Shown one piece after another: positions 4,591-39,555 of a stretch of 64,000 nt of DNA. The notes below the pieces were generated by a model. It ran no database searches, was not told the DNA's origin, and was given only the letters and a program-made list of their open reading frames with translations. Each line of letters begins with the position of its first letter. Positions within the stretch are counted from its first letter, which is position 1. The stretch lies in NCBI GenBank assembly GCA_047967505.1, contig CM106538.1. The stretch is one strand, 5' to 3'. Made by a program: the position numbers and the translations under genes. The DNA comes from Dipteris shenzhenensis. Lineage: Eukaryota.

Positions 4591-5323
4591 TGTAAGAAAA
4601 TAATAATACGTCTGTGCTCAACAGATAACAGGATCTCGTACGCAAGAGAGAAAACAAGATAGTATGGAGAATCAAAATTTTGATTACTGTAGAGCTGATA
4701 CAATAGATGGCGCTGCCTCCCAACCGTGCGCTCCTGTGAAAGAAGCTTCGATGGTGTGCTGGAAACAGTGGAAGACGGAGGCTAGATGCTAAGGAATCAG
4801 GGTTGCTGTAGCCCTTGATGAAATGGGCTTCACGGGCTTGCTCTTATATAGCCACCAGTCGTAGTCGGTTAGGCTCAATTGGGTGACCGACCTAGTCCAC
4901 CCAAAACGGTCGATTGGGGGTCGGTCCTGAAATAGGCCACCGACCATATGATAGAACCGGTGCGCAAAATAGAGCAACTGACCTACGGACACCATTCGGC
5001 CCAGAGCCATCTAGGATCATCTGAGGCTGCAAATCGGGCCCCGTTACCCGAGAGTGGGCTGCCCCGGGAAATGCTCCGTCTACCCTCAGTGCGGTCAGTT
5101 AAGGGATGCCTTCCCGCACTTGCATGTAGCCTAGTTGGCGGTGTGCCAACTCTATCTAAAGCCGTCCAACCATCAGGCCACACATGGCCCCCATCTGGTG
5201 TCCAAACCAGGACCTACCGGATAACTGAGCTACTCAAATGCCTTCTCCTCATATGGGGGGCTTACAAGTAGAGTTAGCTGGTTCCCGTGTAGTTACACGA
5301 GAGTGGAGCATTGATATCTAACA
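4591..5323 (-). repeat. 5' LTR of copia A (733 bp)
   Basis: TG...CA termini; adjacent to the PBS; near-identical to 1-599 and 35893-36616. Confidence 0.95.
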
Positions 5324-14104: not shown

Positions 14105-16509
14105 AAAATGTTGGCCAAGTCTAGACTCTTTAGAATCTTTTTAAAGGAGCAAGGTACCCTTTACAACAGGGGCTCCTACACCTTCCAAGTTCTATAATGG
14201 AGCTGAAGGGTTGAAATCTGAAATGCTTTCGTCTGTGCAGCATGATAAAGTCTGTATTGCGGGTTCAAGCACATTCGAAGGATGAAGAAGCCGCCTTGAC
14301 TGACATTGAGGATTCTCTTAGGAGTAAGGAATCTGTAAGAATCTTGATTGGTTGACTGAAATGAAAGCTTGTTGAGACTTAGAAATGATGGTGAGCTCTT
14401 CAACGAGCACGTTTTCCCACCTAGTTTGGTCGTAGAAAGGGCGCTTCTTGTATGACTTCTAGGTTCATGGGTTGTGGCGTTCAAGACCAAGTTCTTTATA
14501 CTACCAATAGTTGCTGCCAATTTAGCCGGAGTTCTAAATTGACAGTGCTAATTGCTTAGTTGGTCATATATACAGGGTGCTTGTATGACTTTCAGGTTCA
14601 TGGGCTGTGGCCATTAAATATATATGGGGACCAAATTCACTTGCGCTGCTGACTTACCCAACTTCAACGTAATTGGGTTCCAAATCGATAGTTGAGGCCC
14701 ACCTCATTCGGTCATAGAGTGCCTATGCATTTTTCGCTAAGGATGCTCATTTGGGAGAGACTAAAATGAAACTATATAACTCTTCACGATCAGATGTAGC
14801 TTGAATGAAGAGGAATCTGGACTACTTTTTTATTAACCTTCAATGCTAGCCTTTGTCACGGTTGACCCTACCCTTCACCTCTAGAGTGTTGATAGATACT
14901 CCCTATGAATATCATAGTATAAATGGATGCTCAAGTATGTGTCGGCGTGTGGATATGTATTGTGTGAGAGCATATGTTTATATCATTGGCTACACCCACA
15001 ACCTAGGTCAATAGTGTAGGGCTCAATGGATAAAGTGGCTTTCCCATACCACGATGAGACCCATTGTGGGTATACCAAGGATCCCAAAGTGACTCCAATT
15101 GGTTAGAAATCGCCCATGTCCCTAGGATTCTAAAACCCACTATAGAGTTTAAAGTTTCAAATGCAGGTAGGAATTAAACATCAATTTAGAACAGAGTGTT
15201 TGCAAATTTTGCAACTAGTATTGGTGAATTTGGTCCCCACATGCCCAAACTCATCTTTTGAAAACATAACACATTGCAATTTCAATCTCATGAGAATCAC
15301 ACTTAGGTTGAAAACCATAATCTCCATCACGCATAGCAAGGACTAGCTATTATGAAATCCCAAGGGATGTCATTAGTGTCCATGAACAATGATATACTCA
15401 CAAAATGTGATGATAGTATTGGGTGTTGTGGCTTGTAGGTTTATGTGATGGGCCTTGGACCTTGAGATTAGATGTGGCTTAGATGTAGTACCTACCCCTA
15501 CGGTTGTCATTGATCAATTCTGCAATGCTCAAGTTGCAAAATTGCAGCTTTGACTAAAGGGTGATGACTTGATACGAGGATTCTACGGTGGGAGCTAAGT
15601 TTGATGCTCATCCCTATGGTGTTCTAAGCAAGGTGATTTCTTAGTACAGAGTGACTTAGGTAGTTGTAGTATACTAATGATGTTAAGCGCTTCTTATAGA
15701 CAAGTTGTACTAAACATGTTAAGTTCTCGTTGTGTATGCACTTAGGCGGCCTTATTAATGCCTTCTTTCCTCTCTTATGATTGTTGTGTATCATCTTAAA
15801 TCCATGTAGCCTCTATTACATATTGGTCTTATGGTCTCAATTCATCATTCATCTTGTAACTTTGAAAACTATTCAAAAACCCATCATCTTTCCCTTTATA
15901 GCACTAATTTTGTCGGAGATGACAGAGAATGAGAGCAAGGCTTATGCGGTTTTATCATATGCGAGTAGGACTTATGTGATGAGAGCACGACTCATGGGTT
16001 TTATCTTAATGCCCCAAGGAGTGGCAACGCTTGCTTTGTTCGAAACACGGTAGTAAGAGAGACACACAAGATGACTAGTAAAATCTGATAATGTAAAAAA
16101 AAACTATATATATGCATCTTCCCAATTATTAGGGTTACAGTTAGATTTTGTTCCATCAATTTTCTATGGATAGGTACAATTTATGGTGTCCTTGAATTTA
16201 CTCCCTCTTAACTTGCACCTGATAAAAGGGTAATTAATAAAGATTTTCATATTTTAACACCATATTAGTAATTTTGGGATCATGTTCAATTGCAACATGA
16301 TTACACAAGGCACCTACAATAACTCACCTTAAATTATTTAGTATTTGATAATGAAAACTTGAAAAACATTCCAATGCATAATGAAAACCTCAAATTTAAC
16401 ACTGCAATGCCATACAAGAGAGTTAACTTTGTTGAATTATCAACACATTTATATAATAGTTGGTGTCAAGATATAAATGCCATTTGTTTAAAGCAATGAC
16501 CAAAGTAAA

Positions 16510-16980
16510 GCTAAGCTTGTTATCATCATCATGACATTGTCAATGGTAATTGTTATGCATTCAACCAATAGGAAGATAATGAGCTGAAGCTAAGCTTGTT
16601 ATAATCATCATGGCATTGTCAATGGTAATTGTTACTCATTCAACCAATAGGAAGTCAATGAGCTGAACTACTCAATACAAGCCCTTATTTAAAGAAAACA
16701 AAACCTTAAGACCATTGAGTATTAGCTCAAGGCCAACTTCCAAGAATTGAACACGTGAAATTGCTCAACCAATAGGAAGACAATGAGCTGAACTACTCAA
16801 TACAAGCCCTTATTTAAAGAAAACAAAACCTTAAGAACATAGAGTATTAGCTCAGGGCCAACTTCCAAGAATTGAACACATGAAAGTGCTCAACCAATAG
16901 GAAGACAATGAGCTGAACTACTCAATACAAGCCATTATTTAAACAAAACAAAACCTTAAGACCATTGAGTATTAGCTCAA
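16510..16980. repeat. compound tandem repeat: 79 bp x2, then 125 bp x~2.5
   Basis: Units start at 16510 and 16589, then 16668, 16793 and 16918; they share TCAACCAATAGGAAGACAATGAGCTGAA; array abuts the transposase stop codon. Confidence 0.9.
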
Positions 16981-19480
16981 TCTGCACTCTTGTCGTTTAC
17001 TTGATCAACCCCTTCTAGGCTTGCTTCTGCTTTCTCACGCACGGTAGGTGGAATTTTGATCTTCTTGGGCTTCTTCACTCCTTTCGGTGTCCAACTCCAT
17101 ACTATTGAGTTTGCTTGCTCCCAACGTGTAGGATCTTTGTCATTGCACATCCAAAATTTCTCCCAACAATTTACATACACTTCTTCCTCGCTTGCATTCT
17201 TCTTATGGGAACATGGTGCCCAATACTGTATCAATACCATGTTGTATTCTTTAGAGGAAGCATTGGATTGAATGTCTGACTTGGCTTCACCCAACCAAAT
17301 TGGATATATATTGTCGCTTGGCCTCACAAGAACAAAGTCACCCTTTTTTACATCTATAAGAGGTTGGAATGCATCTTTTGGCTTGTTACGTTGTGGACCA
17401 TAGTAGTGGTCTTCCAATGCCTTTAAACCCATGAAACCTTCATTTTCGGTGCTGGTGTTATGCTCTGTTGCATGTGTTGTCTTTGGCCAAAAGCCTGAAC
17501 ATATATCTTGAATTTGCATAGTTGATGCAGATTCTGACAATGCATTGATCATGTTTTCCCAATACTGTATCACTGGTGTAATGTATATAGAATAAGGATC
17601 CAGTGAGCCTTTGTCAATGCGATGCTTGTTCCAATATTTTATATAGTCCTTTATGCCATTCACCACTTGAGCACTATCTTTTAAGTACTCACACATTGGA
17701 AGTACTGGTGGTTCCCCAATTGGCAACAAAGATTTTCCAAGAGTATCTATTTTCCACAACTCTATGCCACCACCCTTTGGCATCCAATGATCTTGCGTGT
17801 GATTCATTTTGTAATGCATTACTGAAATGTCATCTTGCATGAAAAAACGAAAATGCAATGCTTTGAATGTCCAATAAGTTTATCCTGGCCTTCACATAAG
17901 TAACCATCAATAAACCCTTTAAAGTCTAGAACCTATCCTAAAAGGGGCAAGCCTTGAGCTTGTGCACTTGTTGAAGGTTTTCATAAGATGTGCTAGAGTG
18001 AGAGAATGACTTGTCCTCAACTGCTTTGAAAAACGACTAAACAATGCATCAATATCTTCATGGGTATGACCAACCATTAAGAAACCCATCTCTATCATTA
18101 AGAAAACCTGCCTAGCCACCAACAAAGATAGGCATGCAAAAACATATATGTTTTTGTTCTTCGATCTACAATTGTCTAATTGCAACAAGAGGCAAGGTGG
18201 AAGAGTTTTGAAAGATGTAGTGGATGTGTTATATGTGCTTGCAAGCACTTGTTGAGCATAAGGATTTGACTTCCCATCCATTGATAGATGAATATCCATG
18301 GCTGTCCTTGAGGTCACACAATTTAGGAGCTGGCTTGAAGTATTTAAAGAGCTATGTACAAGATCACCATACTGATACTTATCTTCTCTTTCCAAGTCAC
18401 GAAAACACAATGCTAATGATCCCACGGTAAAGTTTGGGTGTGCGGGCCAAAGACCAAGTGAAAAATGTCCATATGCTTCTTGTCCATGTCCATGTGTTAG
18501 CATTCCAGTCAATGATATTGGCAACTTATCGATATCTTTTGCTCTAACTTTGAGCCTCGGTATGGCTATCTTCTATTGATCCATCTTATCATGTATGATG
18601 CATAAGACTTGTTGAGGGTCCTTCTCTGATTTGTAACGCCATGAATAATATACATGCCGACAACTCATTTGTTGTTTCATATGCCCCATCCTCTCCACAA
18701 AGAGCTTTTCACATTCTGTTGGTATCTTAGTAGCACCCAATTTCGACTTGATTGCACTACAAAGGCTACGTGACTTTGAGAATGTGCTTGTATGAGAAAC
18801 CGAGACATGCTTGAAGTCTGTGTTCCAAATTCTATTGAAGGTCAACTTTGGAACCTCCTTGTACCCTAGCTCTTTCATGGTCAGATTGATCTCATGCATT
18901 ATGTCCACTTGTTTGTACATATCTAGAATGACAAGTTGTGTTTCTCTCATGCCATCTATTGTTGTTTGAGCTTTATGCGGCATCCTTTCAGCATTGTTAT
19001 TCACAAAGTCACATAATACAGCTCTTGCCATCCCCACATGATCCCACCCTTTTCTAATTTTGTTTCCATGCATGGCATTTGTGCATCCAACATTATGTTG
19101 CTCCTTGTACCTATAGTATGAAGTTTTAGAAATTGCGTACAATTCATACCATGTCGTGCAACATATTTCCCTCCCATCAAAGCTAAACAGGTCATGTGAC
19201 ACAACACCTTTTGAATCAATCCGCATAGCATAAGTGAAGCTATTGAAGATATAGGTCATTCGATTCTCCAAGTTCATGCTCCAAAATTCCACTCTCATTT
19301 GCAAAACCAAATTACGATCTGCAATCTAGCAACACTTCAACTCACAACAACCTATAAGTGCCACATCTTCATACGTGCACTTCTTCATCAGATGGCATTC
19401 AATTTCCTTTCTAGGCTTGCGATTGACCATATGATATTTTCTTTTTGTGCGAAGTGGTTTGACATTTAGGCGCTAATTGG
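16977..19480 (-). pseudogene. Sola-like (DUF7869-type) DDD transposase, disrupted
   Basis: CCELKCC N-terminal cluster, CIIHDKMDQ, LLLQLDNCRSKNKN and FLMVGHTHEDIDALFS catalytic-type motifs; ORFs 18573-19310, 17919-18524 and 16977-17858. Confidence 0.78.
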
Positions 19481-19492
19481 GAGCCAAAAGTA

Positions 19493-20765
19493 CAAGATTG
19501 GTTTGAAAGCCGACCTTTGTCTCTCGTGCCCGATGGAGGATGAAAGTTCAATATCGGTTTTAAAACCGATCTGAACTGTCATGCATGGTGGATGATAAAA
19601 GTTCAAGATCGGTTTAAAAACCGATCTTAATCTCTCATGCCTCATGAAGGATGGAGGTTTAATGGTGGTTTCAAAATTGATCTTTGTCTTCCATTCCCAA
19701 TTTAGGATGAGAGTTTAAGATCGGTTTTAAAACCAATCTTGATCTCTTATGCATGATGAATGACAAGAGTTCAAGATCGGTTTCAAAACCAATCTTCGTC
19801 TCGAACTTCATCCCTCATGCCCGATCGAGGATGAAAGTTTAAGATAATTTCCAAGACCAATCTTGGTCTCTCTTGTCCTATGGATCATGAGCTATCAAGA
19901 ACGGTTTTGAAACTAATCTGGTATAGAATGCCTGTTAAGGATTAAAGTAGAAGATCACATTTAAAATAGATCGTGGTCACTCACGCACAATGGAGGTTGA
20001 ATTTTTAAAACCGATCTGGATCTTGATCTCTCATGGCCGGATCGATTTCAAAACCGATCTCAAACTTGACCATGTCATATGAAGGATGAAACCAAGATTG
20101 GTTTTAAAACGATCATGTTCTCTCTTCATGGAAAAGATTAAACTTTTGTTAAAACCGATCTTGGACTCTTAGGTGAATTGGAGGATCATTGATCAAGATC
20201 GATTTTGAAACCGGTCTTCATGTCAGAAGCCGAATGGAGGAAGAGAATTTGAGTTTGTTTTTAAAACTGATCATGGTCTCCATCATATCATGTGAAGGTT
20301 CAAGCCAAGATTAGTTTTAAAACCGATCTTCGTCTCTCAACCATGGTAAAGTTTAACATCAATCATGGAGTCTTATGCGTGGTGGAGGATAAAAGTTCAA
20401 GGTCGCATGAAGGATGAAAGTTCGAGATCGGTTTTAAAACCGATCTTAATCTCTCATGCTAGATGAAGGATGAAAATTTGAGATCAGTTTTAAAACCGAT
20501 CATGGCCTTCAACATGTCATGTGGAGGATGGAACCAACATTAATTTTAAGGACGATCTTTGTTTCCATCATGGTGGAAAACTTCAAGATCGATTTTAAAA
20601 CCGATCTTGGACTCTCATGCATGTCGTGGACGGTGAAAGTTTGAGATCGATTTTAAAACTGATATGGTATCCATCACGTCTTGTGGAGAATGAATCTTAA
20701 AACCGATCTACATCTCTCATCATGGGACAGTTTAACATTGGTTTTGAAACTCGTCTTGGACTCTC
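19493..20765. repeat. array of ~22 degenerate ~56-bp units, each with a 24-bp palindromic core
   Basis: AAGATCGGTTTTAAAACCGATCTT variants at about 19493, 19549, 19604, 19660, 19716, 19772 ... 20423, 20479, 20584, 20642 and 20733. Confidence 0.92.
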
Positions 20766-20779
20766 ATGCGTGGTGTGGA

Positions 20780-21937
20780 CTAAAATATATTTAAATGTTT
20801 TATTATGGTGTTCTAAAGATATTTTAATTAAAGTGTACTAAAATACATAGTACAAACGTAATAAAATAACTTACATTAATACTTTGAACCTTAAAATTTA
20901 TCCAGAACCTAAACAAAAAATGATTAATTTTAACTAACTCCCTAAATAACGTTTTGTTTAAATTCCCTATCTACTATTTTATTTTAATTCCCTAGCTAAT
21001 GTTTTATTTATCCTAACAAACATTTAATTTAAATTCCCTAACAAATGTTTTATTTATCCCTAAATAAAATATAATTACATGCTTTATTATGGGTTTTTAA
21101 ATATATCTGACATATTTCTCCTTATCCAAAAATATTTTTTTGATTAAAGTGTACTAAGATACATAGTCTAAACTATTCCAAATATACTTTTATTTATTCC
21201 AAATATGTTTTACTAAATAAAATATTAATAGAATACAAAAACATATTTTAAATCTCTTCCATATTATATCCATTATTAATTAAATTATTTTATATTCATA
21301 CATTTAATTAAAATATTTTAAAAATATATATATTACTTAAGTTTTAATAAATAAACCCTATAGAATATAAAATATGTATATGGAATAAACATAATATATT
21401 AAATAGTAGGCAACTCTTTCACTAAATCCCTAACTAACATTCTAACGAACTTCCTAACTAATGTTTGATTTAAATTAACTACTAATATGACTTATTAGGC
21501 TAAAGTTTAAACCTTAAAATTTATCCTAATCCTAGGCTAAAAATGATTAATTTTAACTAACTCCCTAACTAACGTTTTATTTAAATTTCCTAACTCCCTA
21601 ACTAATGTTTAAATGTTAATATGACTAATTCATGTTTAAACCTAAACTAACGTTTAATCCTAAACCTAAAATAACGTTTAATCCTAAACTTGAACTAACA
21701 TTTAACCTTAATATGACTAACTAACGTTTAACCATAAACTAACATTTAAACCTAAACTAATTTGTCTAATTAGCCTACTAACTATCCTAAACCTAAATTA
21801 AACCTAAACTAACTAACCTTAAATAATTAGCCTAGACTAAGTCACTAACGTTTAACCTTAACTAATTAGCCTAAACTAATTTAACTAATTAGCCTAGACT
21901 AAGTCACTAGCGTAAACCTAAACCTAAAGGCCTAACC
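20780..21937. repeat. very AT-rich low-complexity tract grading into CCTAAA/CTAAC repeats
   Basis: Repeated AAACCTAAACTAAC and CCCTAACTAAC motifs at 21420-21937. Confidence 0.7.
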
Positions 21938-22336
21938 TATTGGAGAGGCTTACTGTGAGCTATAGCGCCACCATCACCATCGCCCTCACGCAGTCTGACT
22001 CTGCCATCACCATCGCCCTCACGATCAGAGTCTGCACACAGACCGAGTCCTCCATCACCATCACCCTCACGCTCTCTCGGAGTCTGCATCAAGTACTGTC
22101 TCGAGGTCTACCTCGCCCTCACGCTCTCTCTCGGAGTCCTACCCACACTTCTCAATGCCATCTCCCTCGGTGTCTGCATGAACGTCTTCATCATGCACAG
22201 GGACATGTTGGACGATCTTCATCTATTGCTTGTTCTTGGACTTTGTTGGAGTTGTTGTCTGCATCAAGATTTTGGAGGTCGTCTGCAACACTCGCTCCAT
22301 CGCCATGAGATAGTGTCATCTTGGAGAGGAGGTGGG

Positions 22337-22659
22337 CTCTCTCTCTCACACTCTCTCACAGCCGCTCTCTCTCTCACGCTCTCTTAGAGTCTTTCACTCT
22401 CTCTCACACTCTGTCTCTCTCTCTCTCTCACGGTCTCTCTCTCTCTCTCTCGTTGACGCTCTCTCTCTCTCTCACGGTCGCTCTCAAGCTCTCTCTCTCT
22501 CACGGTCGCTCTCTCTTTCTCTCACGATCGCTCTATCTCTCTCTTTCACGCTCTCTGTCTCTCTCTCTCATGCTCTCTCTCTCTCTGACACACACTCATG
22601 CTATCTCTCTCTCTCTCATGGTCACTCTCAAGCTCTCTCTCTCTCTGATATCACTCACG

Positions 22660-22737
<78 letters not shown>

Positions 22738-22890
22738 CTCTCTCTCTCTCTCTCTCTCTCATGCTCTCTCTCTCTCTCGGTCTCTCTGATATCACTCACG
22801 CTCTCTCTCTCAAACTGTCTCTTTCAAGTCTCTCTCTCTCTCTCACTGTCAAAGTCCTCTCTTTCACCCATGCCCTCTCTCTCTCTCTCT
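22337..22890. repeat. compound (CT)n/(CA)n microsatellite
   Basis: Long interrupted CT runs with CA runs near 22680-22733. Confidence 0.95.
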
Positions 22891-23258
22891 CAGGATACTA
22901 GATATAGCAGTATGAGCTCTTTTAACCCTCAAGAATTCAAACAAATTTTGAAAATTTCCCTTAAGACTAATTCCAAAATTTACACCAAGATCGGTTTTAA
23001 AACCGATCTCGATGGAGGATAGGAAAAAAAAGTTAAGTAATTGGTCCATAATTCAAATTTTGAAAAAATTCGAATTAGTTTTTTGAAATTCCTCGTCTTA
23101 AAGCTTTTTGTACAAGCTAAAGTTTCAAATATTATGTCACGTAAATTTGGGGATGCTAGCATTTATATTGTACCTAAGTTTGGGGTTACATATTTGTCTA
23201 ATTTACTTCACTAGAATGGAATCTTTCGTTAAGCTTAACTTCGAATAGAGGATGGGGC

Positions 23259-23368
23259 TAAAGGTGAAGGTGAAACCCTTTGCCCTTCATCCCCTTAACC
23301 AAGATCGGTTTTGAAACCGATCTTTGGTTGAGGGAACGAAGGGCAAAGGGTTTTACCCTCATCCTTTA
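23259..23368. repeat. ~110-nt imperfect hairpin centred on the 24-bp palindrome
   Basis: AAACCCTTTGCCCTTC...CCAAGATCGGTTTTGAAACCGATCTTTGG...GAAGGGCAAAGGGTTT. Confidence 0.85.
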
Positions 23369-23660
23369 ATTCTTTATCTTGGAATTTCGTACAAGCACAG
23401 TCATATAGATATAATATGGTGATTGATCAAGGCATCTTTTCCTCAATATTTCATTGATTTGTCATGGTCAGGACACCCATGCATGCACGTGAAAAACTTG
23501 TAGTGAAAGGGCTTGCATACATGCTACCATAACTTCAAATTACTGGCTTAAGGCTTTGCTCTTAATCTTCCCATCAAAGATTGGTTTTAAAACTGGTCTT
23601 GGTTGGGGGATCAAAGGGAGGAAAGTGAAAGCATTTGTCCTCCATTGAAATCAATCTTCT

Positions 23661-23790
23661 TCGGATTTGAAGGACCATGACTTTGCTCTTATTCTTCCCA
23701 TCAAAGATCGGTTTTAAAACCGGTCTTGGTTTCAAAACTGATGTTTGATAGGAAGATTAAGAGAAAAGCCATATTGTTTTTCAAATCCAA
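23661..23790. repeat. ~130-nt imperfect hairpin containing the palindrome
   Basis: GGATTTGAA...CTCTTATTCTTCCCATCAAAGATCGGTTTT pairs with AAAACTGATGTTTGATAGGAAGATTAAGAG...TTCAAATCC. Confidence 0.8.
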
Positions 23791-24124
23791 GGTCACCCCT
23801 AAATTTAAGTTTTCATTCACCGAGATCGGTTTTAAAACCGGTCTTCATTAGTGGATGAAAGACCTAGCCTTTTTCTATTATCCTTCCCTACCTTCCTTTC
23901 TTCTGTTATCTCTCCATCCCCAAGAAGATCAATGGCAAGGCCTTTTAGGTCACCAAAGTTCGGTTTTAAAACTGACCTTGGAATTGAGCTCAAATGCTAA
24001 TGTTCAAATTTGGCATTCAAATTTGATACGTGCTTACAATCTTAGTCATTCTAAAGGTGGTAGTGTTTGGGATTTTATTTGTGTTTTGTTTTTGTTGATT
24101 TGACATTGTGTTGTGAAATAGGAC

Positions 24125-26783
24125 ATGGCATGTAAGAGTACCGAATTGTCGACTAAGAAGTCAAAAGGAAGGAGAGTAAGTGGAAAGACTAGTGATAGTA
24201 GTGCAACCAACAAGAAGAGCAAGCCCTCCCACAATGTTTTTAATGGTTGTAATGATCCACAGTGGGGATTGTATGTGGACACATATAGTGAAAGTGGAAA
24301 ACCTTTCAAGAAGGTCCACTTGTTTGTTAAAAGAAATGATTCTTCGGAATTCGAAGATGTGGGGCATGTAACATGAGTAAATAAGGGTATAGTGGGTCAA
24401 GAAGGTGATGAGGCCATCTTCATCCAAGTCAGCTTAAAAGTCTACTACCTATCACCAGCACATTATGATGAATCAAAACATAAGAAGAACAAGAAAGATT
24501 CCATGCAGAAAATGGGTTGGAATATTGTGATCGATGAAAACACAACTCCGGACATGATTGTTGACAATATCAACATAATTGGTCAGATGATTAAAATGCC
24601 AAGAAAAATAGGTGAGGGTAATGTAAAACAAGCAAATGCTGAGGAGAAACATGAAAGAGCCTTGGTGACTATCATTGAAGCAGAGCCATTGAGGATAGCA
24701 CCATCAGAAGAGGACATTATTGGTTGGAAGGAGAAAGGAGAGGGGATACACAATTTTCAACAGTACTATCCTTTTGGTCTAGATGGGTTCTCAATCCTTG
24801 TTTTAAATTGTACACAAGCACCAACTAATTACGTGTATAGGCCCCTAGTGGAACAATACGTTTGCAATTTGGTCAAAGAATTCTGCATGAATCCAAGAGA
24901 TTGCTTCACAAAAGCAGATGTGATGCCTTATGATCCAAACACTAATTTGCCACTAACCAATGTGACGTTTAAAGACATACACACCTATGCTTATTGGGTG
25001 CTATCAAGCCAGCACTCAATTGAAGCAGCTAAAATTTTGCAAATGAGTGATTTTCTAGTAGTTAAAGAAATCAAAGGTGTTTATGCAAGGAGAACCGCAA
25101 GAATAGTATTGAATTGTCCAAAGCATATGTGTCGGCTAATTTCGCGAAAGGCGAATGAGGAACTTCAAAAGAACATGAAGGATGCACCTTATGCAGAGCA
25201 ACTGAAGCAGCTACGAAGTTAGTGGGTTGCATTTGGGAGACCAGAGAAGCCTAAAGTTGGAGCCACCAAAGGACACCAATCACGAAAAGAATGGGATGTA
25301 AGCATTTCTTCTAAAATTTTGTTTTTAAAAGTTGCTATCTTTGTGATATTATTTATTAACTATACAAGATTGGTTTTAAAACCGATCTCAAGAGAAGTAT
25401 GTGATTCCATGTTGTTTTTGCTTTCTCTTCCTTGTATAAGCTTAGTTTTAAAACCGATCTTGAGAGCAGTATGTCATATATGCTATATTGATGTTGTTAT
25501 ATGCAGGATTTTATTGATACTGTGCATTTGTCTTTTGGAAAGAGTTTCAACCAAAAAGATGTTCATGTGATTATATGTCCAAATGATCTCTTCCAAGGAT
25601 GGATGGACATCATGCATAGATATGTTAAGGGAAATTTGCCAAATCAAAAGGGTCAAGTATCGGTCCAAGAGATGAGCACAACACAAATTCCTACTTTTGG
25701 TAAAGTGGGAGAAATCAATCAAGCAAAGGGCACTAAAAGACTAGGATTGACAATGTTTCGCTGTTTGTTGGGCATGGAGGACTCTATGATATCCACTTTG
25801 CAGCATGAAATCTTAGAGAAAAATGTGATTTTATCTAGTTCCAAGGCATCAAGCATCAAAACCATGGATGAAAGGTGTTGGGAAATGAAAAGTGACAAAG
25901 TCCTTCACCTAGAGATTGCTACTTTCCTCAAGGCAAAGTCACAAGACAATGTAGGTAAGAGTTGGGAGGAGATGAAACTATTTTATGACATCACTGATGA
26001 TAGGTATCATACTATATTTAGATATTACAACGAGTGGTTTAAAGACTGCTTAAATCCCAGCAGCAAGATGACAAATGCAATGCTACCTCAGACTGCTTTG
26101 ACATTCCTTACTTGGATTCATAACTCTAAATTTGGTACCTCCAGTCAAAGTGTGAAAGAAATCCATGGAAGACCATAAATGTGGGAGGCAAGTTAGAGGG
26201 ACTAGAGAGTGTGAACAAATACACAGAAGAACAACGAATTGGAGTAGTTGTTCTTGATACACAAGAATCGCTAGAGCAAGAGTGGAACGTGTCTTTCTTT
26301 GAAAGATTCTTTGAAATGCTAAATGAAATAACACATGAAGCACCTAAATACGGATTACTTGCCTTTGTTTCAGTAAAAAATGTATCACATTTGTTGGAAG
26401 CAATCAAAGGCTTACAATTGCAATTCAAGTATCAAGTGGGTGCGTATGACACAGAGTCTTCCCAAGATTCTTTGTCTAAAGATGCTCTTGGAGATTTGGT
26501 TGTTTCGAGTATGGTTTACAAAGAATCTTGTGATGCAATAATAAATCAATTAAAGAAGAATTCGACCAAGGCATCTGTATGTTTTGGATTATATGACCAG
26601 GATTCCAAGAACGGTGAAGATACTGATGAGGAGGAATCCCCCAAGCATTTGCAAAATGCAAACTTTATCTCTTCTTTCATTGAGTACTTCTATCGGCCAG
26701 ATCAATGTGTTATTGATGCCTTCACAGAGGGAATTGCCACCTTAGAGTCATTGAAGAAGAAGGACACTTGCATTTGTAGCTAG
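24125..26783 (+). pseudogene. cargo gene: ParB/Srx-like domain plus degenerate beta-class N4/N6 DNA methyltransferase-like domain
   Basis: Same frame from 24125 to 25297 with stops at 24374 and 25220; GT-AG intron 25298-25506; frameshift near 26178. Motifs YVYRPLVEQYVCNLV and YWVLSSQHSIEAAK (ParB-like); IGVVVLDTQE and FIEYFYRPDQCVIDAFTEG (MTase-like). Confidence 0.55.
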
Positions 26784-27638
26784 GAATCAAGATGAGATTG
26801 AAGTGAATGGCAGGTGCTCAGATCTAATCTCCGCATCTAAAGAGTTAACAGTATGGGCAAACCTAGACTCTGAGGATGAAACTATAGAAAACCAAGAGGA
26901 ATCGCATAGTGCAGACATGCAGACTTCAACTCAGTAACAATTGGCAAGACCGACGGATGTACAAGAAAGACCAATAAACCCTTGAGGATATTGACGAAAT
27001 GGCCAAGCAAATATTCGCATCCAAAAAAGCAGGTCAAAAGTCATAAATCTTCAAGGATTTCAGAGGCATTTATGTAAATATCTTTGAAACTGATAATGCT
27101 TCCAAAATTGAATTGTTCATGTAGATTTTGTAATTGCTATATTATTAGGTCAATAAGAACGATTATTGAACTTAGTCTGTCATCCTTTAACAACAATGAC
27201 AGGATATGATCAGTTTTAATTCCGATCTTGGCTTTCAGCATGAAAGGCTAAGAACGGTTTAAAAACCGATCTTATGAACTCCCACACAAAGAGCATGAGA
27301 GTAAGATGAAAGACTAATATCGATTTTATAATCGATCTTAACATCTCCCACTTGGTGGACTATGAGATGTTGAGATCGGTTGTAAAGCCAATCTGTTGTT
27401 CGGAAATATAACATACAATTCACTTTTGATTTGTGTATGGAAATGTAATGTCAGATTTGCATTTGAATTATGATCAATGCTTTTTTAACTTAGTAAATAC
27501 AAATTGTATCCTCTAATGTGATGAGACTCTTATGAGAATTGGAGATATAATCTAATACACCAAAATACTTAGGTTACCATTGTCAATGTAAATGAGAGAA
27601 TATAATGTAGATTTAAGCTCACATTTTTAAATGTAAGC

Positions 27639-29461
27639 ATGGAAAAAATTCATTGAATCTTGACCTCACACCTTGATACTTTTGCATGCCATGATATAAA
27701 TGGAAATCCCCTGCATATAGAAATACCACACAGGGAAAAATCAGATGAGTCAATGGAACATATTCAATGTTCTCCATCTATGACAACAAAGAAATTACTT
27801 GTACTTGACCTGAATGGAATTTTGCTCCTCAAGTCCAATAAACCTTCTGATAAACACAAAAGCATACAAATTTATAAGACAACATGGATTGTGCTTCGAA
27901 ATGGATGTGTTCAATTCTTGGATAGATTGTTTGAGCACTTTCATGTGTGCCTATGGTCAACTGTGATAATCAAGAATGTGAATTACATGGTTCATTTGAT
28001 GGAGAAGCTTGCAGCGAAATGATTTCCGTTCTACAAAATTATGGGGCAAGATCAATGCTACAAATCACTTACAGAGATATTAAAGAGACCGGACAAGCCA
28101 GGCGTTCAATGCATGTTTAAGCCCTTGCTTGCCATTTGGACAAATGATAAAGAGTTAAATCCTAGTAACACCTTGCTTATTGATGATTGTCCGTTTAAGG
28201 GCTGTGTAAACCCAGAAGAAAATGGTATATATCCAGATACTTTTGACATAGGTGAGACTGATGACATATTGAATGTTGAACTTCCCCCTTATCTCCTCCG
28301 ATTGAGAGATGTATCAAATATAAGAAATATTAGCAAGCTTGACCGTTATGGAAATGACCCAATACAATACAAATCATCATCAATATATGTATTTCAAAGA
28401 AGTGATTTTGGAAGGGGAGTTCACTACAAAGTACATAAAACACTTCTTGGAGGAATCTGCTCCAAGCCAAAAGATTAGTTTGACCAACTCAAGTCATTTT
28501 GAGATCGTCCAACATAGTAATCGAATGAGAGATGCTTGTGAGCCAGATAAGGAACAATCATCAAAATCCCAAGAACAAGAGCTCAAAACATGCCCAGCTA
28601 CCTTGGATTCTTCTAAACTAGATCTGTTGAAGAGGATAAAGCAGCTAAATTCTTTGAATGAGATGCAAGCTTGTTTGTATGCCTTGAAATTGGGTTACGA
28701 TCAATCATATATTACTGGAACTTCTGCCAAAGTGTATATAACAAGACTACAAGCTTCACTTGCATTAAACATGCAATAAATCTTTGAGAATGGTAATTAC
28801 TCATATTATTTGCTTATTTGTGATGCATCATTTTTGTAAATTTCCTTCTCATTATTTATGTGTAACTATTTAATAACTCATTATTTTTTTCTTTTACACA
28901 CAAGGTTCAAAGACATGCTGAAAGAATTGAAGAATAAAGTAATTCTTCACTTTGATTCTAAGTTGAATGGCGTGTGGGATCAAGATCTACCAAACCAATT
29001 GCTTCTATATTCAAGCTCTCAATGGTGTTGAATTTAAAGTGAAGACATCATCGATTGTAGGAGAAAGTTATGGCTTGCTTGTACATATGAATGTAAAAGC
29101 AAAGAAAGACCTTTTGATATTCAATGGCCCAAAGTATGATTACTAGAGTTGGATTACTCTTTGCTCTTACCTTCCAAGGTTTAGGACCTATGGCCTCCTC
29201 GAAGATTCAAAAGTTACACCAAAGGAGGACACACAATACATCGTAGGAGATGTGTTGTATGGTAATGTAGCTGGATACATCAATAGCTCTATTCATTGTA
29301 AGGGTAGAATAAATGTTATGTATGTATATGACTCTAGAGTACCACCTTGGATCGAAGACAAATGGGATGTTTTACCTACTGATATGTTAGGATTTATTGT
29401 TGTCTACTCTCTTAGAGATATCCATGCAGGAGAGGAGTTGTTTTGTGAGTATGATTTTTAA
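27639..29461 (+). pseudogene. cargo gene: FCP1/SCP (NIF) HAD phosphatase domain followed by a SET domain
   Basis: KKLLVLDLNGILL, LRNGCVQFLDRLFEHFHVCLWS, NTLLIDDCPFKGCVNPEEN (FCP1); probable intron ~28793-28904; VKTSSIVGESYGL, GNVAGYINSS, LRDIHAGEELFCEYDF (SET); several stops and frameshifts. Confidence 0.75.
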
Positions 29462-30640
29462 GATGTAAAACCTTTGTCATGATGTTGGTGTACTCCCATT
29501 TTAATTTAATATGTTGGTGCTTAATACCATCTTTTTCTTGAGAAAATTCACATTGTTTGGATTCACAATGATGGCAATTATATGAGCATGTTTGGAATAT
29601 TTCAATGGAATGATATAATATTTAGCCATATAAAAACTCAAAATCATATTCAAATACATGATTGTTTCTATTAATTTCCTCCACATCAAACCAAACACCT
29701 TTTATATTTAAAGATAATGATATAGTGTTGTCTATTAATATTTCAATGGAATGATATAATATTTAGCCAAATTAAAACTCAAATAGATCTTCGAATATAT
29801 GAATTTATCTAAAAATTTCCTTCCAAAACAACCAAAACGCCTTTGATTTTTGGGATTTAAAAAAAAATGGGAGTAGGGATTTTCCCAAAATTACTAATAT
29901 AGTGTTTTTTTCTAGATAGAATGTTGCATCATAGCAACAACAATGATAAAGAACAAAGGGTGCTTTATAGAAGTTATTTTTGGATTTTTCTAAAATAAAA
30001 GGTTGCATCATGGCAACAAAATTGATAAAGAAGACAAAAGTGATAAAGAAGGAAAATTAGAATTATTGCATATATTGCATAAACTACAACAAAAAAAATG
30101 TACAAAGTATACAATTAAGCCTTCACACTTCCTCATCTTAACTGTAGCTAGTCTTTGCAAATACCAAGTTCATAATAGAAACTATTTGATTTGTAGAGGG
30201 AAAGTGGGTGGGTGGAGATATCAACAATTGATGAAGCTTAAATTACTTAAATGAAACAACACAATAAATTGTGGATAATAAACAATGAGGCTAGGAATTG
30301 TATAGGTTGAGCAATAATAAATCCTTGTATGGATTTAAAGATGATTATTGGTCTTATCCTCTTGGATTTGCATTTGATTGAGAAAACGCAGTGGTTGATT
30401 TCTTTGGAAGTTGGTCAAATTAGAATGAATATCATACTAGAATATGATTATGCATCCATGAATGGTTTGAAGACTTGGTTGAACTCGTCATATAACACTA
30501 ATATTAGCACAAAAGTACACTATCGATTGTTTACAAACATTGCTTTGAAACATGATAGTTGCAAAATATATCATGTCTACTTGAAAATCTTCTTATATAT
30601 AAAAAAGACTATTCTTGACTTTAGATACAAAGTGACGTAA

Positions 30641-31941: not shown

Positions 31942-34900
31942 TGGTATCAGAGCCCAAGTGGCTCTAAGGATCAAAGAGTAGAAGAGAGGCGAGGGCTTCA
32001 ATAGCATACGGAGTGATGGCAATAGGAAGCGGTTCGAGTTCAGCAGTTGCAGCTGCATCAACTGCACCAACAACCCAAGAGTTGAAGATTCGGCCACCAG
32101 CCTTCCAATATGTTCCAGGCCATAGTTGCCTTAGATGTAGGCTAAATTAAGGTCAAAACACTATTAGTAGTACTTGTAACCAAGGCACATAGAGCATCTA
32201 TGTTCCTACGTTTCCAAGCTCGTAGAAGGTCGGCATTAGGAGGTATCGTACTCCCCAGATTTGTTGGGTCAAGGGTTCCTTGTGGTTCTAGGTCAGTCCC
32301 CAGTACTGTCTCCAAAAGCTCATATGAATCCAGAATAGCAGTAATTTTAAACTTCCACAGAGTGTAGTTTGTACCATTAGTCAGTATGAGACGCGGAATC
32401 AAACAAGGATCCAGAACCAAGAGAATCAGTTGGCAGTTGAGAAGTTTAATGAAGGAGAGACAGTGGAGGCATTCATAACCCGAATCAAAAATCTGCATGA
32501 CCAGATGGCTGGTGCTGGGATACAAAAGACTAGCGAAGAGCTAGCTCGGTGGTGTCTTCGGATATGTCCACCAAGGTTTGATGGATTGGTAATAGTGTTG
32601 AACACTCAGGTGAGTCCCCAACCATTGTCATTTGAGGAGTTTTGTGCTTTACTTATGGAGGAGGAATTGAGGCTTAAAGCTCAAGATGGAGGCGGCAATG
32701 GGGATGCTGCGTTCTCTGCCACTGCGAAAGGCAAAGGTGGTTCCTCCACCAAAGGTGAGTCCTCTACTAGTGGTGACAAAAGGAAGAAGGGTGGCAAGAA
32801 GAAGTTTCAGGGAGAATGCTTCTACTGAAAGAAGAAGGGCCATGTGATTGCAGATTGTCAGGTCAAGAAAGCAGATGAAAAGAATGGTACCCTGAAGAAG
32901 ATAGATAAGGGAAAAGAGATAGCTAACACAGTGAAAGCAGAGTTGGATCTATTTTTAGCCATTGAGGAAGAGTGTTCCTCAGTTCAAGAAGCTTCAACCA
33001 CTGATTCATGGGTGTTAATATGTAGTGCCTCCCATCACATGACTTGCAAGAAGGGTCTATATTGTTCCATGCATCCTCTACAGGAACCCATCACCATGAT
33101 GGTTGGAAATAACACAAAATGCCATGTTGAGGGTACAGGTATGGTTTCATTTGTTTCTATAAATGAAGATGTTAAGAAACTATCTAATGTGCTGTATGTT
33201 CCACAAATCAAGAGAAATTTGCTATCAGTTGCTTCCATAACTGACCTTGACCATGAGGTGAGGTTCAACAAGACAAGAGAAAAAATTCTAGATAGTGCAG
33301 GTAATCTTGTTGGCACAAGAGTAAGGAGGAGCAACCTGTCTGAACTAAGTGCTCTTACAACCTCCGCTGGAGTGGGCACAAGCAGACTTTGGCATGAAAT
33401 ATTCAACCACATTGGATTTGCAGTGCTAAAGGAGATGCAGAAGCAAGGTATGGTTGCTCACTTACCTGCAGTTGCAGAAATCAATGAACCATGTGAAGCT
33501 TGCATGATGGGCAAGCAACAGAGAAAGGCATTCCCACAAGAAAGCAAGAATAGAGCAAATGCTCCTCTAGAGTTGGTGCGTGTTGACTTGTGTAGTAAGA
33601 TGCCTACACAGGCCTTGGGGGGATCTTCCTATTTTTTATTGATTGTCGATGACTATAGTAAGAAGATGTGGGTGTACTTTCTTTGTGAAAAGGCTCAAGA
33701 TTTCGGTAAATTGAAAGAATGGCTATAGCTTGTTGAAAATGAAATAGGGAGAAAAGTGAAGAAAATCAGATCAGATGGTGGTGGTGAGTCTATTTCTATA
33801 GAGTTTGGAGGCTTTTGCAAGAGCAAAGGGATCAAGCGACAAACGACAACATCACATAGCCTCAACAAAATTCGGTTGTTGAATGCCGAATGCGGACCAC
33901 CATGGAGATGGGGAGGTGTATGTTGAAAGGTGCTGGACTGCCAAACCACTTTTGGGCTGAGGCTGTCAATACTGCAGTTTACATCCTTAATCGCAGCTAT
34001 ACAAAGGCACTCAAAGGTAAAACACCACATGAGGCTTACAACGGTAAGAAGCCATCTATCTCCCACTTCAGAACGTTTGGGTGTGAATGCTATGCGCATG
34101 TACCAGACAAAGAGAGAAACAAGCTACAACCAAAAAGCACCAAATGTATCTTCTTAGGCTATTGTGATGAGAAGAAAGCCTATAAGTTGTATGACTGATA
34201 GGCAAAGAAGATCTCAGATGCCTATGTCTATTGAGCAGCATGCAAATGGACCAAGGCAGTCTTAGAGAATCGAGGAGCAAAGGAGGGCTTCTGCTCACAT
34301 AATCAATATGGCCTTGATGGCTGAGATTATTGCAAAAGTAAAGGAGCCTGCAAGTTTGGAGGAAGCACTTGCAGACCGAGATTGGAAAAACACTATGCAA
34401 GTAGAATATGACAGCATCATGAAGAATGAAACTTGGGAACTAGTAGATCGACCACCTAACAAAAGGGTTATTGGCACCAAGTGGGTTTGGAAGGTAAAGT
34501 ACAAGGTCGATGGGACTTTGGAAAAGTACAAAGCTAGTTGGTTGCACAAGGATTTTTGCAGATTGAAGGGTTTGATTTTCAGGAATCTTTCACTCCGACT
34601 ACCAGAATGACCACTATTCAAACAGTACTATTGGTGGCTACTCATAAAATGTGGCCAATTTATCAAATGGATGTTAAATCAACATTCTTGAATGGTGACC
34701 TCAAGGAGGAGGTGTACATGGCTCAGCCACCTAGGTTTGAGGCTCCCCATTCTGAGAACAAGGTATGTAAGCTGAAGAAGGCTCTGTACACGGGCTGAAA
34801 TAGGCCCCAAGAGCATGGTACCAACGAATAGACAAATTCTTTCATAAATTAAACTTCAAAAGATGTGCCTCAGATGCTAACTTGTATGTGTATAGGAAAG

Positions 34901-35892
34901 GTGGAAAATCTGCTATTATTGTTCTATATGTGGATGATCTCCTTATTACAAGTGACTATGAAGACATGATCCAATAGACTAGAAAGCCGTTGAGCACAGA
35001 GTTTGAGATGACAGACTTAGGCTTGATGCACTACTGTTTGGGGATTGAAGTCTAGCAAGAGCCAGGCAAGATCTTCATCTTTCAACAAAAAATATGCAAG
35101 GAAGATCTTGAAGGCATTTGGTATGTCCAAGTGCAAGGAGATAGCTACACCTATGGAGGTAAATGCGAGGCTATCTATGGAGGATGCCTCACCACCAACA
35201 AACATCGAGAGGTAAAGAAGTTGGTTGGCAGTCTCATCTATCTGTGCAACACTAGACCAGACATCAGTTTTGCTATTGGTGTTTTGAGTAGGTTCTCCAA
35301 TGAGCCTCGCGAGAATCATTGGAATGCAGGGATGCGGGTGCTTAGGTACTTATGGTATGGGCACTTCCTTGGCTGGTCATTGTGACTCAGATTGGGCTGG
35401 AGATTTTGATTCTAGGAAATCAGTTTCTGGATATTTTTTCTCTTTAGGTTCAAGTATCTTCTCTTGGATCAGTAAGAAACAACCAATAGTGGCATTGTCT
35501 TCTACTGAGGCTAGCATGTTTTGCTGCTTGTGAAGCAGTGTGGCTGAGGAGGATCTTATGGCACATGGGAGTGCAAGAGGATGAGGCAACTATGCTAAGG
35601 TGCAACAATCAAAGTTGCATGGCCATTGCTAGAAGTCTAGTGTTTCATGCGTGCACAAAACATACTCATGCGCGCACAAAACATATAGAGATTCAATATC
35701 ACTATGTGCATGATTTAACGGGATAGTGGAATTGGTCTACTATCCAATAGAGCAAAATGGAGCAGATATCTTCACCAAGGCACTCGGGAAGGATCAGCTT
35801 CAGGGTCATCTTCAAAGACTTGGCATTGGGTCGAGAAGGTAATTCACCTACGGGTGGACATTGAGGAGGGGTGTTAGATATGCTCAATGCCC
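31253..35892 (+). mobile_element. Ty1/copia element B, degenerate; 3' LTR interrupted after 21 bp
   Basis: 5' LTR 31253-31941, PBS TGGTATCAGAGC 31942-31953, gag/INT/RT/RH fragments (LWHEIFNH, VDLCSK, LYVDDL, LSSTEA), PPT TTGAGGAGGGG, then TGTTAGATATGCTCAATGCCC at 35872. Confidence 0.93.
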
Positions 35893-36616
35893 TGTAAGAA
35901 AACAATACGTCTGTGCTCAACAGATAATAGGATCTCGTATGCAAGAGAGAAAAGAAGATAGTATGGAGAATCAAAAATTTGATTACTGTAAAATTGATAC
36001 AATAGATGGCGCTGCCTCCCAGCCATGCGCTCCTGTGTGAGAAGCTTCGATGGCATGCTGGAAACAGTAGAGGACGGAGGCTGGATGCTAAGGAATCAGG
36101 GTTGTTGTAGCCAGTGATGATAATGGGCTTCACGAGCTTGCTCTTATATAGCCACCACTCATAGTCGGTTAGACCCAATTGGGTGACTGACCCAATCCGC
36201 CCAAAATGGCCGACTGGGAGTGAAATAGGCCACCGACCACACGATAGAACTGTGGCACAAAATAGAGCAACTGACCTATGGTTACCGTTCGGCCCACAGC
36301 CATCCGGGATCATTTGGGGCTCCAAACAAGCCTCTCAACCTAAGAGTGGGGCTACCCCAGGAAATGCTCTGTCTACCCTTAGTGCGGTCAGTCATGGGAT
36401 GCCTTCCCACACTTGCATGTAGCCTACTTAGCAGTGTGCCAACTCTATCTGAAGCCGTCCAGCCATCAGGACACACATGGCCCCCATTTGGTGTCCAAAC
36501 TAGGACCTACTGGATAACCGAGCTACTCAAATGCCTTCTCCTCATATGGGGGGCTTACAAGTAGAGTTAGCTGGTTCTCGCGTACTCACACAAGAGTGGA
36601 GCATTGATATCTAACA
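35893..36616 (-). repeat. 3' LTR of copia C
   Basis: TGTAAGAAAA...TATCTAACA, colinear with 4591-5323. Confidence 0.93.
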
Positions 36617-39555
36617 CCCCCCCTTAATGTCCACCTGCAAGTGAACTTACTTTTTCGGCCCAATGCCAAGTCGATGAAGATGCCTCTCCAGCAAGTCTCT
36701 TCCAAGAGCCTTCGTGAAGATGTCCGCAGCATTCTTTGTAGTCGGACAGTAAACCAAGTCAACCTCTCCATCCATAATGAGCTCGTGTACAAAGTGATAT
36801 TGAACCTCAATGTGTTTTGTGCGAGCGTGGAACACAGGGTTCTTTGCCATTGCCATGCAACTCTGATTGTCACATGATAACTGCGTAGGCTTGTTCTGCA
36901 CTACACCCATGTCCCTAAAATCCTCCTCAACGACACTGCCTCATAAGAAGTAAAACATGCTGATTTGTACTCAGCCTCGGTAGAAGAAAGAGCAACTGTT
37001 GGCAGATCTAAGTGAGAAACAGTAACCTATCACTGATCTCCTGCTGTCCATGTCTCCTGCCTAATCCGAGTCACAGAATCGGTCAAGATGTTGCCCTCGG
37101 TATAGGTGATGCCATAATCAAGTGTGCCTTTGATGTATTTCAGCACCCGCATCCCTACCCTCCAATGGTTCTCCCGGGGCTTATTGGAAAACCTGCTTAG
37201 TACACCAGTCGCAAAGCTGATGCTCAGCTGCATGTTGTACAAGTAAATCAAACTGCCCACAAGCCTTCTATACTTTGCTTTTCATCCACTAGTGGTGATG
37301 AATCCTTGTTTGAGAGCTTCACATCAACCTCCATAGGGGTGCCAACTGTCTTGCACTCAGCCATGCCAAATGCCTTCAATATCTCTCCAACATACTTTAG
37401 CTATGAAATGAAGATCTGTTTTGGCTCTTGCCAAACTTCAATCCCCAAACAGAAATGCATTAGTCCGAGGTTTGTTGTCATTTCAAACTCTCTTCCTAGC
37501 AAATGCTTTGTTTGCAAGATCTTCTCTTCATGGTTCCCTATTATGACAAGGTCATCCACATAAAGGACCACGATCATACACTTGCCTCCTTCTCTGAAGA
37601 TATACAAATTTGCATCATATGGGCACCTCTTGAACCCGTTTTGTAGAAAGTAGTCATCAATCCACTGGTACCATGCTCGTGGGGCCTGTTTCAATCCATA
37701 AAGTGCCTTCTTCAGTTTACAGACTTTACCTTCTGAACCGAGGATCACAAAACCTGGTGGTTGTTCCAATTACACCTCCTCCTTGAGATCTCCATTCAGA
37801 AAGGCAGATTCTACATCCATCTGAAACACGAGCCAACTTCCCTGGGCTACTAAAGCCGAAACACTGTGAATTGTGGTTAGTCGAGCTGTGGGAGCAAAAG
37901 TATCCTGATAATCAAAACCATGTACCTGTACGAATCCTTTTGCCATGAGTCAAGCATTGTACTTATCTAACGTGCCGTCGGACTTGTACTTGGTCTTGTA
38001 CACCCACTTGGTGCCGATTACCTTGCGTTTTGGTGGTCGATCCACAAGGTCCCAAGTGTTGTTCTTCATTATGGAGCCATACTTTGACTGCATAGCCTCC
38101 ATCCACCTATCATCACCATGTGCCTCTTCAAGACACTTGGGTTCTTCAGCACGGATCACCTTTGTCATCAAAGCGTAGTTGACCAAGTGTTCCTGCGCCC
38201 TTCTTTGCTCCTCTAATCTCTTGGACCGGCAGTGTTCCGATGGTTCCTCCTCAATGGCTGGAGGTTCTCTACTATCCAAAAGCTGCTTTACCCACTTCGG
38301 GAATGGCCGTTGCCATTGTGGTTTCACAGGCTCTTCTTCCTCTTCTTTATCTTGAATCTCCCAAGCACCATTAGGGGAGTTTGGTCTACTATTGGTGGTT
38401 GTACTGGATGGATATCCTGGTCCTGGTTGTCTGGGAAGGAAGCATCCTCCTCCAATTGATGTGGCTGTTCTGAGAAGACCACATCGTGACTTACTATTAC
38501 CTTCTTGGTAACAGGGTTATAGAGACGGTAAACCTTTGGCTCTTCACTATAGCCCAAGAAAATACACTTCTAGCTCTTTGGTTCCCATTTGGTCCTGAGG
38601 GCATTAGGAACATGCACAAAACAGTCACATCCAAAAACTCTAAAAGGTGCAGCTGAGGGTTTCTTACCAGAAAAGGCAGGTATACCAATCCTTCTAACTG
38701 GTCATGTGGTGCAATGCACCACTATCAATAATCCAAGGTTCTTTTGCAGGTACATGAACTGCCTCCGTGCAAATCTCCTCAATTGCTACAAATAGCTCTA
38801 CTGGTACTGCCTGTGCACTATTGCTGGACTCTTTCTTTACTCCGTTCTTCTCATCTACAATCTTCTTTTGGCACTCATTCTGCTTGTGCCCTGCCTTATT
38901 GCAATAGAAGCACTTGACCTTCTTCTTTCTCTTTTTATCATTAGAAGAAGATGGGTTACCAGAGTCCTTACCCTTACCTTTCTTTGATCCAACCGAGAAA
39001 GCCGAATCCTCATCTTTTGATGCATCTCCTCCAGAAGCATTGCGTTGAAATCCTCAAAGTTGAGGGGTGGATTTCTGTTCTGCGGATTCAGTGCCGTAAC
39101 AAAAGCTTCGTACTTTGGTGGGAGAATCCATATGCACCTTCGTGCTAGATTCTCGCTGGTGATGGTGATGCCAATTGCAGTCATCTAGTCGTGTAGATTC
39201 TTCACCTTGGTGATGAACTTCTCTGCTGCTTCAGACTTAGATAGTTTCTCGTTCGTGAGTTGAGTCTCCAGATTCTAAATCCGCATCTGATTCGTGGTCT
39301 CGTACTGATTTTTCAAGACCGTCCATGCCCCCTCTGATGTGGTGACATGTTGAATTAATGCCATGATGGAATCACTTACACTGCAGACAATAGAACACAG
39401 CGCATCTGCATTTCTTCTTGTCCACACGAGAATCTCATCCGTAGTTGGTAATATCTGTTGTTCTACATTGGCTGGATCCGGTCTTGCAACCGGCTTCACG
39501 TCCACCCCAATAGCAATATCCCAAAGCTCATATGCGCTTAGGATGGTCTTCATCT
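35893..39555 (-). mobile_element. Ty1/copia element C (same family as A), 5'-truncated and internally deleted
   Basis: 3' LTR 35893-36616 matches the LTR of A; PPT at 36617; RH/RT/gag align with A; ends within gag at 39555. Confidence 0.93.

Follow-up and report, generated by a model that had tools for sequence, protein, structure and literature searches.

A decayed accessory gene in a candidate fern-type DNA transposon ends in a probably non-catalytic methyltransferase-like domain

We analysed a 64,000-nucleotide stretch of Dipteris shenzhenensis DNA (contig CM106538.1 of assembly GCA_047967505.1; hereafter the window, meaning this stretch at its full length) around an open reading frame (ORF) at positions 26181-26783. 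By its translation, this ORF is one frame-piece, the last domain, of a decayed accessory gene, which lies within what we read as a 13,651-bp DNA transposon (16256..29906) with candidate ends, present as a dead copy in a fern-type plant genome. In our best explanation, which we hold at a probability of roughly two in three, this domain of the accessory gene of a ~13.7-kb fern-type transposon has a dead methyltransferase (MTase) fold and probably serves as a binding module. The C-terminal domain of the intact protein would then bind nucleic acid or partner proteins without catalysis, and would act, together with the NIF-like and SET genes of the element, on the palindrome-rich DNA that the element itself contains.

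The ORF (plus strand, 200 amino acids) contains the motifs that an initial annotation had reported in it, VVVLDTQE at 26244-26267, GLLAFV at 26352-26369 and FISSFIEYFYRPDQCVIDAFTEGIATL at 26664-26744, and both phmmer and tblastn indicate that it is more than a chance frame. Among 1.84 billion representatives, its sole phmmer match was P0001 (E = 1.9e-6), a 477-residue protein with 26% identity to the window ORF over query residues 2-191; a search for longer proteins homologous to ORF 26181-26783 found none. The relatives of P0001 (n = 13) include nine named as hypothetical proteins of the fern Adiantum nelumboides, which are encoded on separate contigs, and the family is multi-copy. Alignments showed that the window is colinear with the Adiantum proteins from 24125 to 28475, NIF-like ORFs included, with tblastn blocks following in order at 24743-25294, 25498-26130, 26163-26780 and, for NIF, 27741-28370. 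This homology with fern proteins spans ~1,300 residues of colinear sequence. Three relatives (P0005, P0006 and P0012) carry a NIF Pfam domain behind the domain of interest, and the order of MTase-like followed by NIF-like is common to the two lineages, which are 26-43% identical. In intact relatives from Adiantum nelumboides (~770 residues), an N-terminal region is followed by a possibly ParB-like domain, then by a helical middle and finally by the C-terminal domain. We defined the corresponding pieces of the window gene by three-frame translation and tblastn with the Adiantum proteins:

24125..24376, plus strand: N-terminal piece of the accessory gene, ending at the in-frame TGA 24374-24376
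24392..25297 (core 24743-25294), plus strand: ParB-like region, unproven, with an in-frame TAG at 25220-25222 and a GT donor at 25298
25298..25506, plus strand: putative GT..AG intron, across which the Adiantum proteins are uninterrupted
25507..26130, plus strand, second frame: middle region, predicted helical and without known family (tblastn with P0001 residues 6-190)
26131..26162, plus strand: frameshift zone, 32 nt against 10 P0001 residues, with different frames in the two tblastn high-scoring segments
26163..26783, plus strand, third frame: beta-class amino-methyltransferase-like domain (tblastn at 26163-26780, phmmer and the P0001 model)
26770..26937, plus strand, another frame: possible C-terminal continuation (ARNQDEIEVNG...), tentative, from a by-eye likeness to Adiantum CNTQEQRDVEA

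Four in-frame stops (24374, 25220, 28020 and 29144) and the frameshift inside 26131-26162 mark the window copy as dead, and the protein cannot be made from it. In the alignment, the TGA at 24374-24376 lies opposite a residue in the Adiantum proteins. The possibility that 26181-26783 is a complete gene was rejected, as the domain begins near 26163 after the frameshift and the ends of the ORF are artefacts of decay. Coding in this frame, as initially annotated, therefore stands, while the bounds do not: the domain starts at ~26163 and probably continues beyond the TAG at 26781-26783 in another frame, although tblastn with the Adiantum proteins reported no match for the stretch 26770..26937.

Catalytic motifs of the beta class were missing from the entire family. 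Neither [DNS]PP[YFW] nor FxGxG was found in any of the 14 members (13 relatives plus the window), so that the degeneracy of DPPY and FxGxG first seen in the window holds family-wide. At the place of motif IV, the window reads VVVLDTQE and 11 of the 13 relatives read VVVLD-x-(A/T)-H-G; the residues after the IGVVVLD strand are thus D-(A/M/G)-(A/T)-H-G in these relatives (DAAH, DMAH, DGAH or DATH) compared with D-T-Q-E-S in the window. At the place of motif I, ten of the 13 relatives have F-(A/S)-C-G-(L/V)-A-S and the window has F-T-E-G-I-A-T (FTEGI at 26721-26735). Both lineages retain the aspartate together with the flanking strands, as well as the helix ahead of motif I. In beta-class MTases, the pocket that receives the flipped base owes its shape to the prolines and aromatic residue of DPPY, and the FxGxG glycines leave space for S-adenosylmethionine (SAM). 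The replacement of all these residues argues that catalysis, and probably SAM binding too, has been lost, and judging from its motifs the domain is most likely a non-catalytic module. Similar roles are thought to be played by METTL14, MTA9 and the DIRS1 methyltransferase-like domain, as non-catalytic binding modules.

The fold was assessed from an AlphaFold2 model of P0001 built on a 14-row alignment (mean predicted local distance difference test score (pLDDT) 43.6, with a core at 70-75 only over residues ~241-290). The modelled order of elements was strand-helix (VYVVG/LEALELI), strand IGVVVLD, helix, strand ILLSFL, helix, two strands, a long helix and strand VVLD, in which the motif IV strand precedes the motif I strand as in permuted class-I MTases. 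Across P0001 residues ~198-414, permuted beta-class/MT-A70 amino-MTases topped all three structure libraries, in searches that all rest on this one model. Foldseek against the PDB gave 67 matches at E <= 1e-3, and those listed were all permuted amino-MTases (MTA1, M1.HpyAVI, METTL3/METTL14, TTHA0409 and CcrM), with M1.HpyAVI at a template modelling score to target of 0.46-0.48. Against BFVD there were 14 matches at E <= 1e-3, including nine named ones, eight of which were DNA N4/N6 or IME4-type methylases and one a fragment of RNA polymerase; rank 15 was taken by a phage 'ParB/Sulfiredoxin' protein. When 48,161 chains were compared, the best 20 belonged to one topological class and spanned the whole domain, while generic Rossmann MTases scored lower and covered half of it. 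From sequence alone, ESM Atlas features for P0003 residues 520-745 placed 20 of 30 matches in the PF01555 set (score 0.92); the same approach with the window ORF itself yielded no usable match. Based on these comparisons, we predict a permuted (beta-class, N6_N4-type) amino-methyltransferase fold at roughly three chances in four. The Rossmann MTase fold expected by the initial annotation is thus what the low-confidence model matches; its proposed beta-class resemblance held for fold and motif order in the model, but sequence profiles, PF01555 included, gave it no significance.

Several observations weigh against a pseudo-methyltransferase, which we hold with moderate confidence at the level of fold and motifs. 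Neither the window ORF nor six proteins of the Adiantum group had a Pfam match to an MTase at E <= 1 to 10, PHROGs and NCBIfam gave none either, and PDB sequence profile searches with the domain alignments returned no match at E <= 10. We ran hhalign against E. coli YhdJ alone, the YhdJ family and a 16-sequence set of YhdJ and phage MTases. It aligned a single block, KHVINATIKAFNDEHEVVLDVFACGLAS on ...LLKRIILASSNPGDIVLDPFAGSFTT, which is motif I in the expected register but not significant (E = 0.04-0.07, probability ~1%), and in global mode it aligned nothing useful. The model is of low confidence, and the alignment behind it holds two divergent lineages only. Finally, we infer the loss of activity from the motifs described for beta-class MTases, and the conserved D and H of D-A-A-H could serve other chemistry.

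With these points in mind, we considered whether the domain might be an unrelated alpha/beta (Rossmann-like) fold, its MTase likeness arising from the poor AlphaFold model and from common strand-helix patterns. We judge this unlikely, given the single topological class of the 20 best chains over the whole domain, which generic Rossmann MTases match by half only, and the agreement of Foldseek between PDB and BFVD (with one shared model); in addition, language-model features obtained without any structure point to PF01555, and the one block that hhalign aligned coincides exactly with motif I. An ORF arisen by chance, or non-coding repeat DNA, would fit the AT-rich, repeat-rich region and the stops and frameshifts of the window copy, but is refuted by the phmmer and tblastn results, in which the colinear homology with fern proteins includes a Pfam-recognised NIF domain; we give this explanation practically no weight.

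Somewhat less probable than an unrelated fold is an active enzyme: a highly divergent methyltransferase, or a protein with other SAM-dependent chemistry, that would modify the GATC/CG palindromes or another substrate. Its motif IV (D-A-A-H) and its SAM loop would both be non-canonical. The motif IV aspartate is invariant, a histidine comes next in 11 of the 13 Adiantum-group proteins, and the scaffold is kept between lineages that are 26% identical, which argues for selection on some function. However, both DPPY prolines are lost and bulkier residues (C/E and L/I) take the place of both FxGxG glycines in 14 of 14 members, and the acidic position after strand 2 is N in Adiantum. Known dead MTase paralogues show similar motif loss, which we also count against activity.

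The region upstream of the MTase-like domain is clearly shared with the fern proteins (42% identity to Adiantum at 24743-25219; tblastn with P0007 residues 244-432, E = 2.8e-34), but its ParB-like nature is unproven. Its pattern Y-x-Y-W-x-x-S-x-x-H-S-I-x-A-A-K recalls the 'G-x-x-R-x-x-A-A' helix of ParB/Srx. There was no Pfam match to the region, PF02195 included, and no PDB profile match at E <= 10. Its model was poor (pLDDT 41.3), and Foldseek with this model found nothing at E <= 1e-3, with ParB-N, PadC and sulfiredoxin appearing at E ~3 only, amid unrelated folds; VIA-align gave no usable match. Aligned by hhalign to a ParB_N + N6_N4_Mtase fusion from Wolbachia phage WO, the region scored E = 0.26 in the expected register. 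The WO methylase (L002:934-2160) adjoins a terminase gene, and its 19 related loci, all 86-100% identical, are too shallow for a useful profile. No Pfam family was found for the middle region (25507..26130), the helical character of which comes from the secondary structure of the model.

We compared the gene with four groups of known systems. Beta-class N6_N4_Mtase enzymes (PF01555; M.RsrI, CcrM, M.MboIIA and M.PvuII) provide the best structural matches and share the predicted fold and element order, namely a 'G-x..LE.L' strand-helix, a strand ending at the place of DPPY and a late helix-strand at the place of FxGxG. The window family differs in having no Pfam match, DPPY or FxGxG, and in being eukaryotic, transposon-borne and located behind ~500 residues of other sequence. 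Phage and plasmid ParB_N + N6_N4_Mtase fusions, such as that of Wolbachia phage WO, likewise have a ParB-type region ahead of their beta-class MTase domain, with the reservation that the fern ParB-like region is unproven; the fern protein departs from them in its ~200-residue helical insert between the two parts and its lost catalytic motifs. METTL14 (chains of which were among the Foldseek matches), MTA9 and the DIRS1 MTase-like domain also keep a permuted MTase fold without catalytic residues, but belong to other clades (MT-A70 and PCIF1-like), and no active partner MTase was found in the window element.

The fourth group is found in transposons. Prokaryotic N6A-MTases are described as having been transferred repeatedly to eukaryotes, with phage ParB-terminase loci among the sources, and the MTase domain of DIRS1 elements is inactive and possibly only binds (Iyer et al., PMC4738411). 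Giant Plavaka transposons of Bostrychia are described as carrying PAG2 (an N6A methylase plus SET) and PAG3 (a ParB N-terminus plus a 2-oxoglutarate (2OG) oxygenase), with inverted-repeat tandem arrays adjoining PAG3 and PAG genes occurring also in Mutator, Zisupton and Fanzor elements (10.1101/2025.02.11.637652). Active adenine methylases are reported from retrotransposons in a 2026 preprint (10.64898/2026.05.21.726589). Compared by description, the Plavaka elements resemble ours as large DNA transposons with a prokaryote-type MTase, ParB-type and SET modules, inverted-repeat tandem arrays beside a ParB-type gene and mostly degenerate copies. In contrast, the window lineage is a land plant, its transposase belongs to DUF7869 and to no Plavaka/EnSpm Pfam family, and the MTase motifs are dead. 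Moreover, a single gene encodes both the ParB-like and the MTase-like part, with SET in an ORF of its own ~2 kb downstream; a NIF-like phosphatase is present, and no 2OG oxygenase was detected among the window ORFs scanned.

The candidate element that encloses the accessory gene comprises the following features:

16256..16279, plus strand: candidate left terminal inverted repeat AACACCATATTAGTAATTTTGGGA, one of two inverted matches in the window
16977-17858, 17919-18524 and 18573-19310, minus strand: DUF7869 transposase-like gene in three ORF pieces, identified by Pfam
19487..20780, unstranded: array of ~56-bp repeats with the 22-bp palindrome AGATCGGTTTTAAAACCGATCT at the centre of every unit, immediately upstream of the transposase-like gene
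22989..23977, unstranded: second palindrome cluster, upstream of the accessory gene, with 12 of 45 pattern matches
25368-25459, unstranded: palindrome sites in the putative intron of the accessory gene, three pattern matches forming two sites
27213..27388, unstranded: palindrome cluster between the accessory and NIF-like genes, from half-pattern matches
27657..28475, plus strand: NIF/FCP1-like phosphatase gene, with an in-frame TGA at 28020-28022
28967-29143 and 29147-29458, plus strand: SET-domain gene pieces, split by the in-frame TAG 29144-29146
29883..29906, minus strand: candidate right terminal inverted repeat, the same 24-nt pattern inverted

The 24-nt sequence of the candidate ends had exactly two matches in the window, in inverted orientation, compared with none in 100 shuffles, and all four genes lie between them. 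TTTT flanks both ends on the outside; because this is of low complexity, a target-site duplication is ambiguous. The middle piece of the transposase-like gene matched PF25273 (DUF7869) with E = 3.6e-36 and 125 bits against a curated cut-off of 26. Assignment of this gene to the KDZ, Plavaka or EnSpm class was unsupported, Pfam yielding DUF7869 alone. On its 3' side lies a tandem duplication (16508-16980; ~80-97% identity, unit offset ~80-250 nt).

In a census of the whole window with a 15-nt half-pattern of the palindrome (<=2 mismatches allowed), we counted 45 matches compared with 0.13 expected. The two GATC and two CG sites that had been noted in the palindrome are present in the 22-bp AGATCGGTTTTAAAACCGATCT. 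Clusters lie upstream of three of the four genes (transposase-like, accessory and NIF-like), and the half-pattern scan of the window revealed none upstream of the SET pieces. Between the first two clusters (20880-21940 and 22337-22844) are AT-rich short tandem repeats and a ~500-bp (CT)n tract. The AT-rich repeats inside the element include CCTAAAC/CCCTAAC-like units, which we take to be reminiscent of plant telomere repeats.

The NIF-like ORFs matched PF03031 (E = 2.2e-7 and 0.0062), and tblastn with P0005 residues 413-618 aligned to the gene at 43% identity (E = 2.4e-49). The phosphatase motif of the NIF/FCP1 family is DxDx(T/V); at its place, the NIF-like domain reads LDLNG in the window and in all three NIF-carrying Adiantum proteins (P0005, P0006 and P0012). 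By this replacement, the NIF-like fold of the element may also be non-catalytic. The SET family PF00856 was matched at 29252-29458 (E = 3.5e-5). SET domains usually carry NHSC, at the place of which these pieces, located just inside the right inverted end, read INSSIHC.

Taken further, the element might represent a land-plant transposon family with a toolkit for self-recognition and chromatin that is of prokaryotic descent, in which a ParB-like/dead-MTase protein would read the palindrome arrays and recruit NIF-type (CTD-phosphatase-like) and SET proteins. We regard this extension as speculative and rather improbable. A role of the MTase-like domain as a DNA reader, and its link to the palindromes, would have to be assumed; recruitment would then protect the element against being silenced, or arrange it for transposition. 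If true, this would be a land-plant counterpart, built from other parts, of the accessory cassette of red-algal Plavaka elements. To our knowledge, transposons with chromatin or DNA-modification genes of their own are rare. Such cases include red-algal Plavaka elements, VANDAL, the DIRS1 MTase-like domain and retrotransposons with adenine methylases, and illustrate the ways in which mobile DNA manipulates silencing by the host. The window would add a fern-type element combining three modules (a dead bacterial-type MTase fold, a possible ParB module, and phosphatase-like and SET genes) with palindrome arrays, and would offer a testable protein-DNA pair, both the protein and the 22-bp site being defined, as well as a new example of an enzyme fold retained after catalysis was lost. 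In the open literature, which cannot prove that none exists, we found no description of the family (searching for DUF7869, fern ParB/methyltransferase transposons, Plavaka accessory genes and Zisupton/Kyakuja in ferns).

The eukaryotic nature of the window is evident from GT..AG intron signals, an MCM exon, copia-type gag/integrase ORFs and microsatellites, including a long (CT)n tract. On these grounds, we rejected the origin from a phage or bacterium that the initial annotation implied. The element is surrounded by nested or neighbouring long terminal repeat retrotransposon copies, seen as 86-88% identical long repeats at 8-5323 and 35887-39555, and it is flanked by copia-type gag/integrase ORFs at 2767-3918 (minus strand) and 32844-33728 (plus strand). 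An ORF at 61850-62383 contains an MCM P-loop domain (E = 1.8e-38) and is probably an exon of a host MCM gene.

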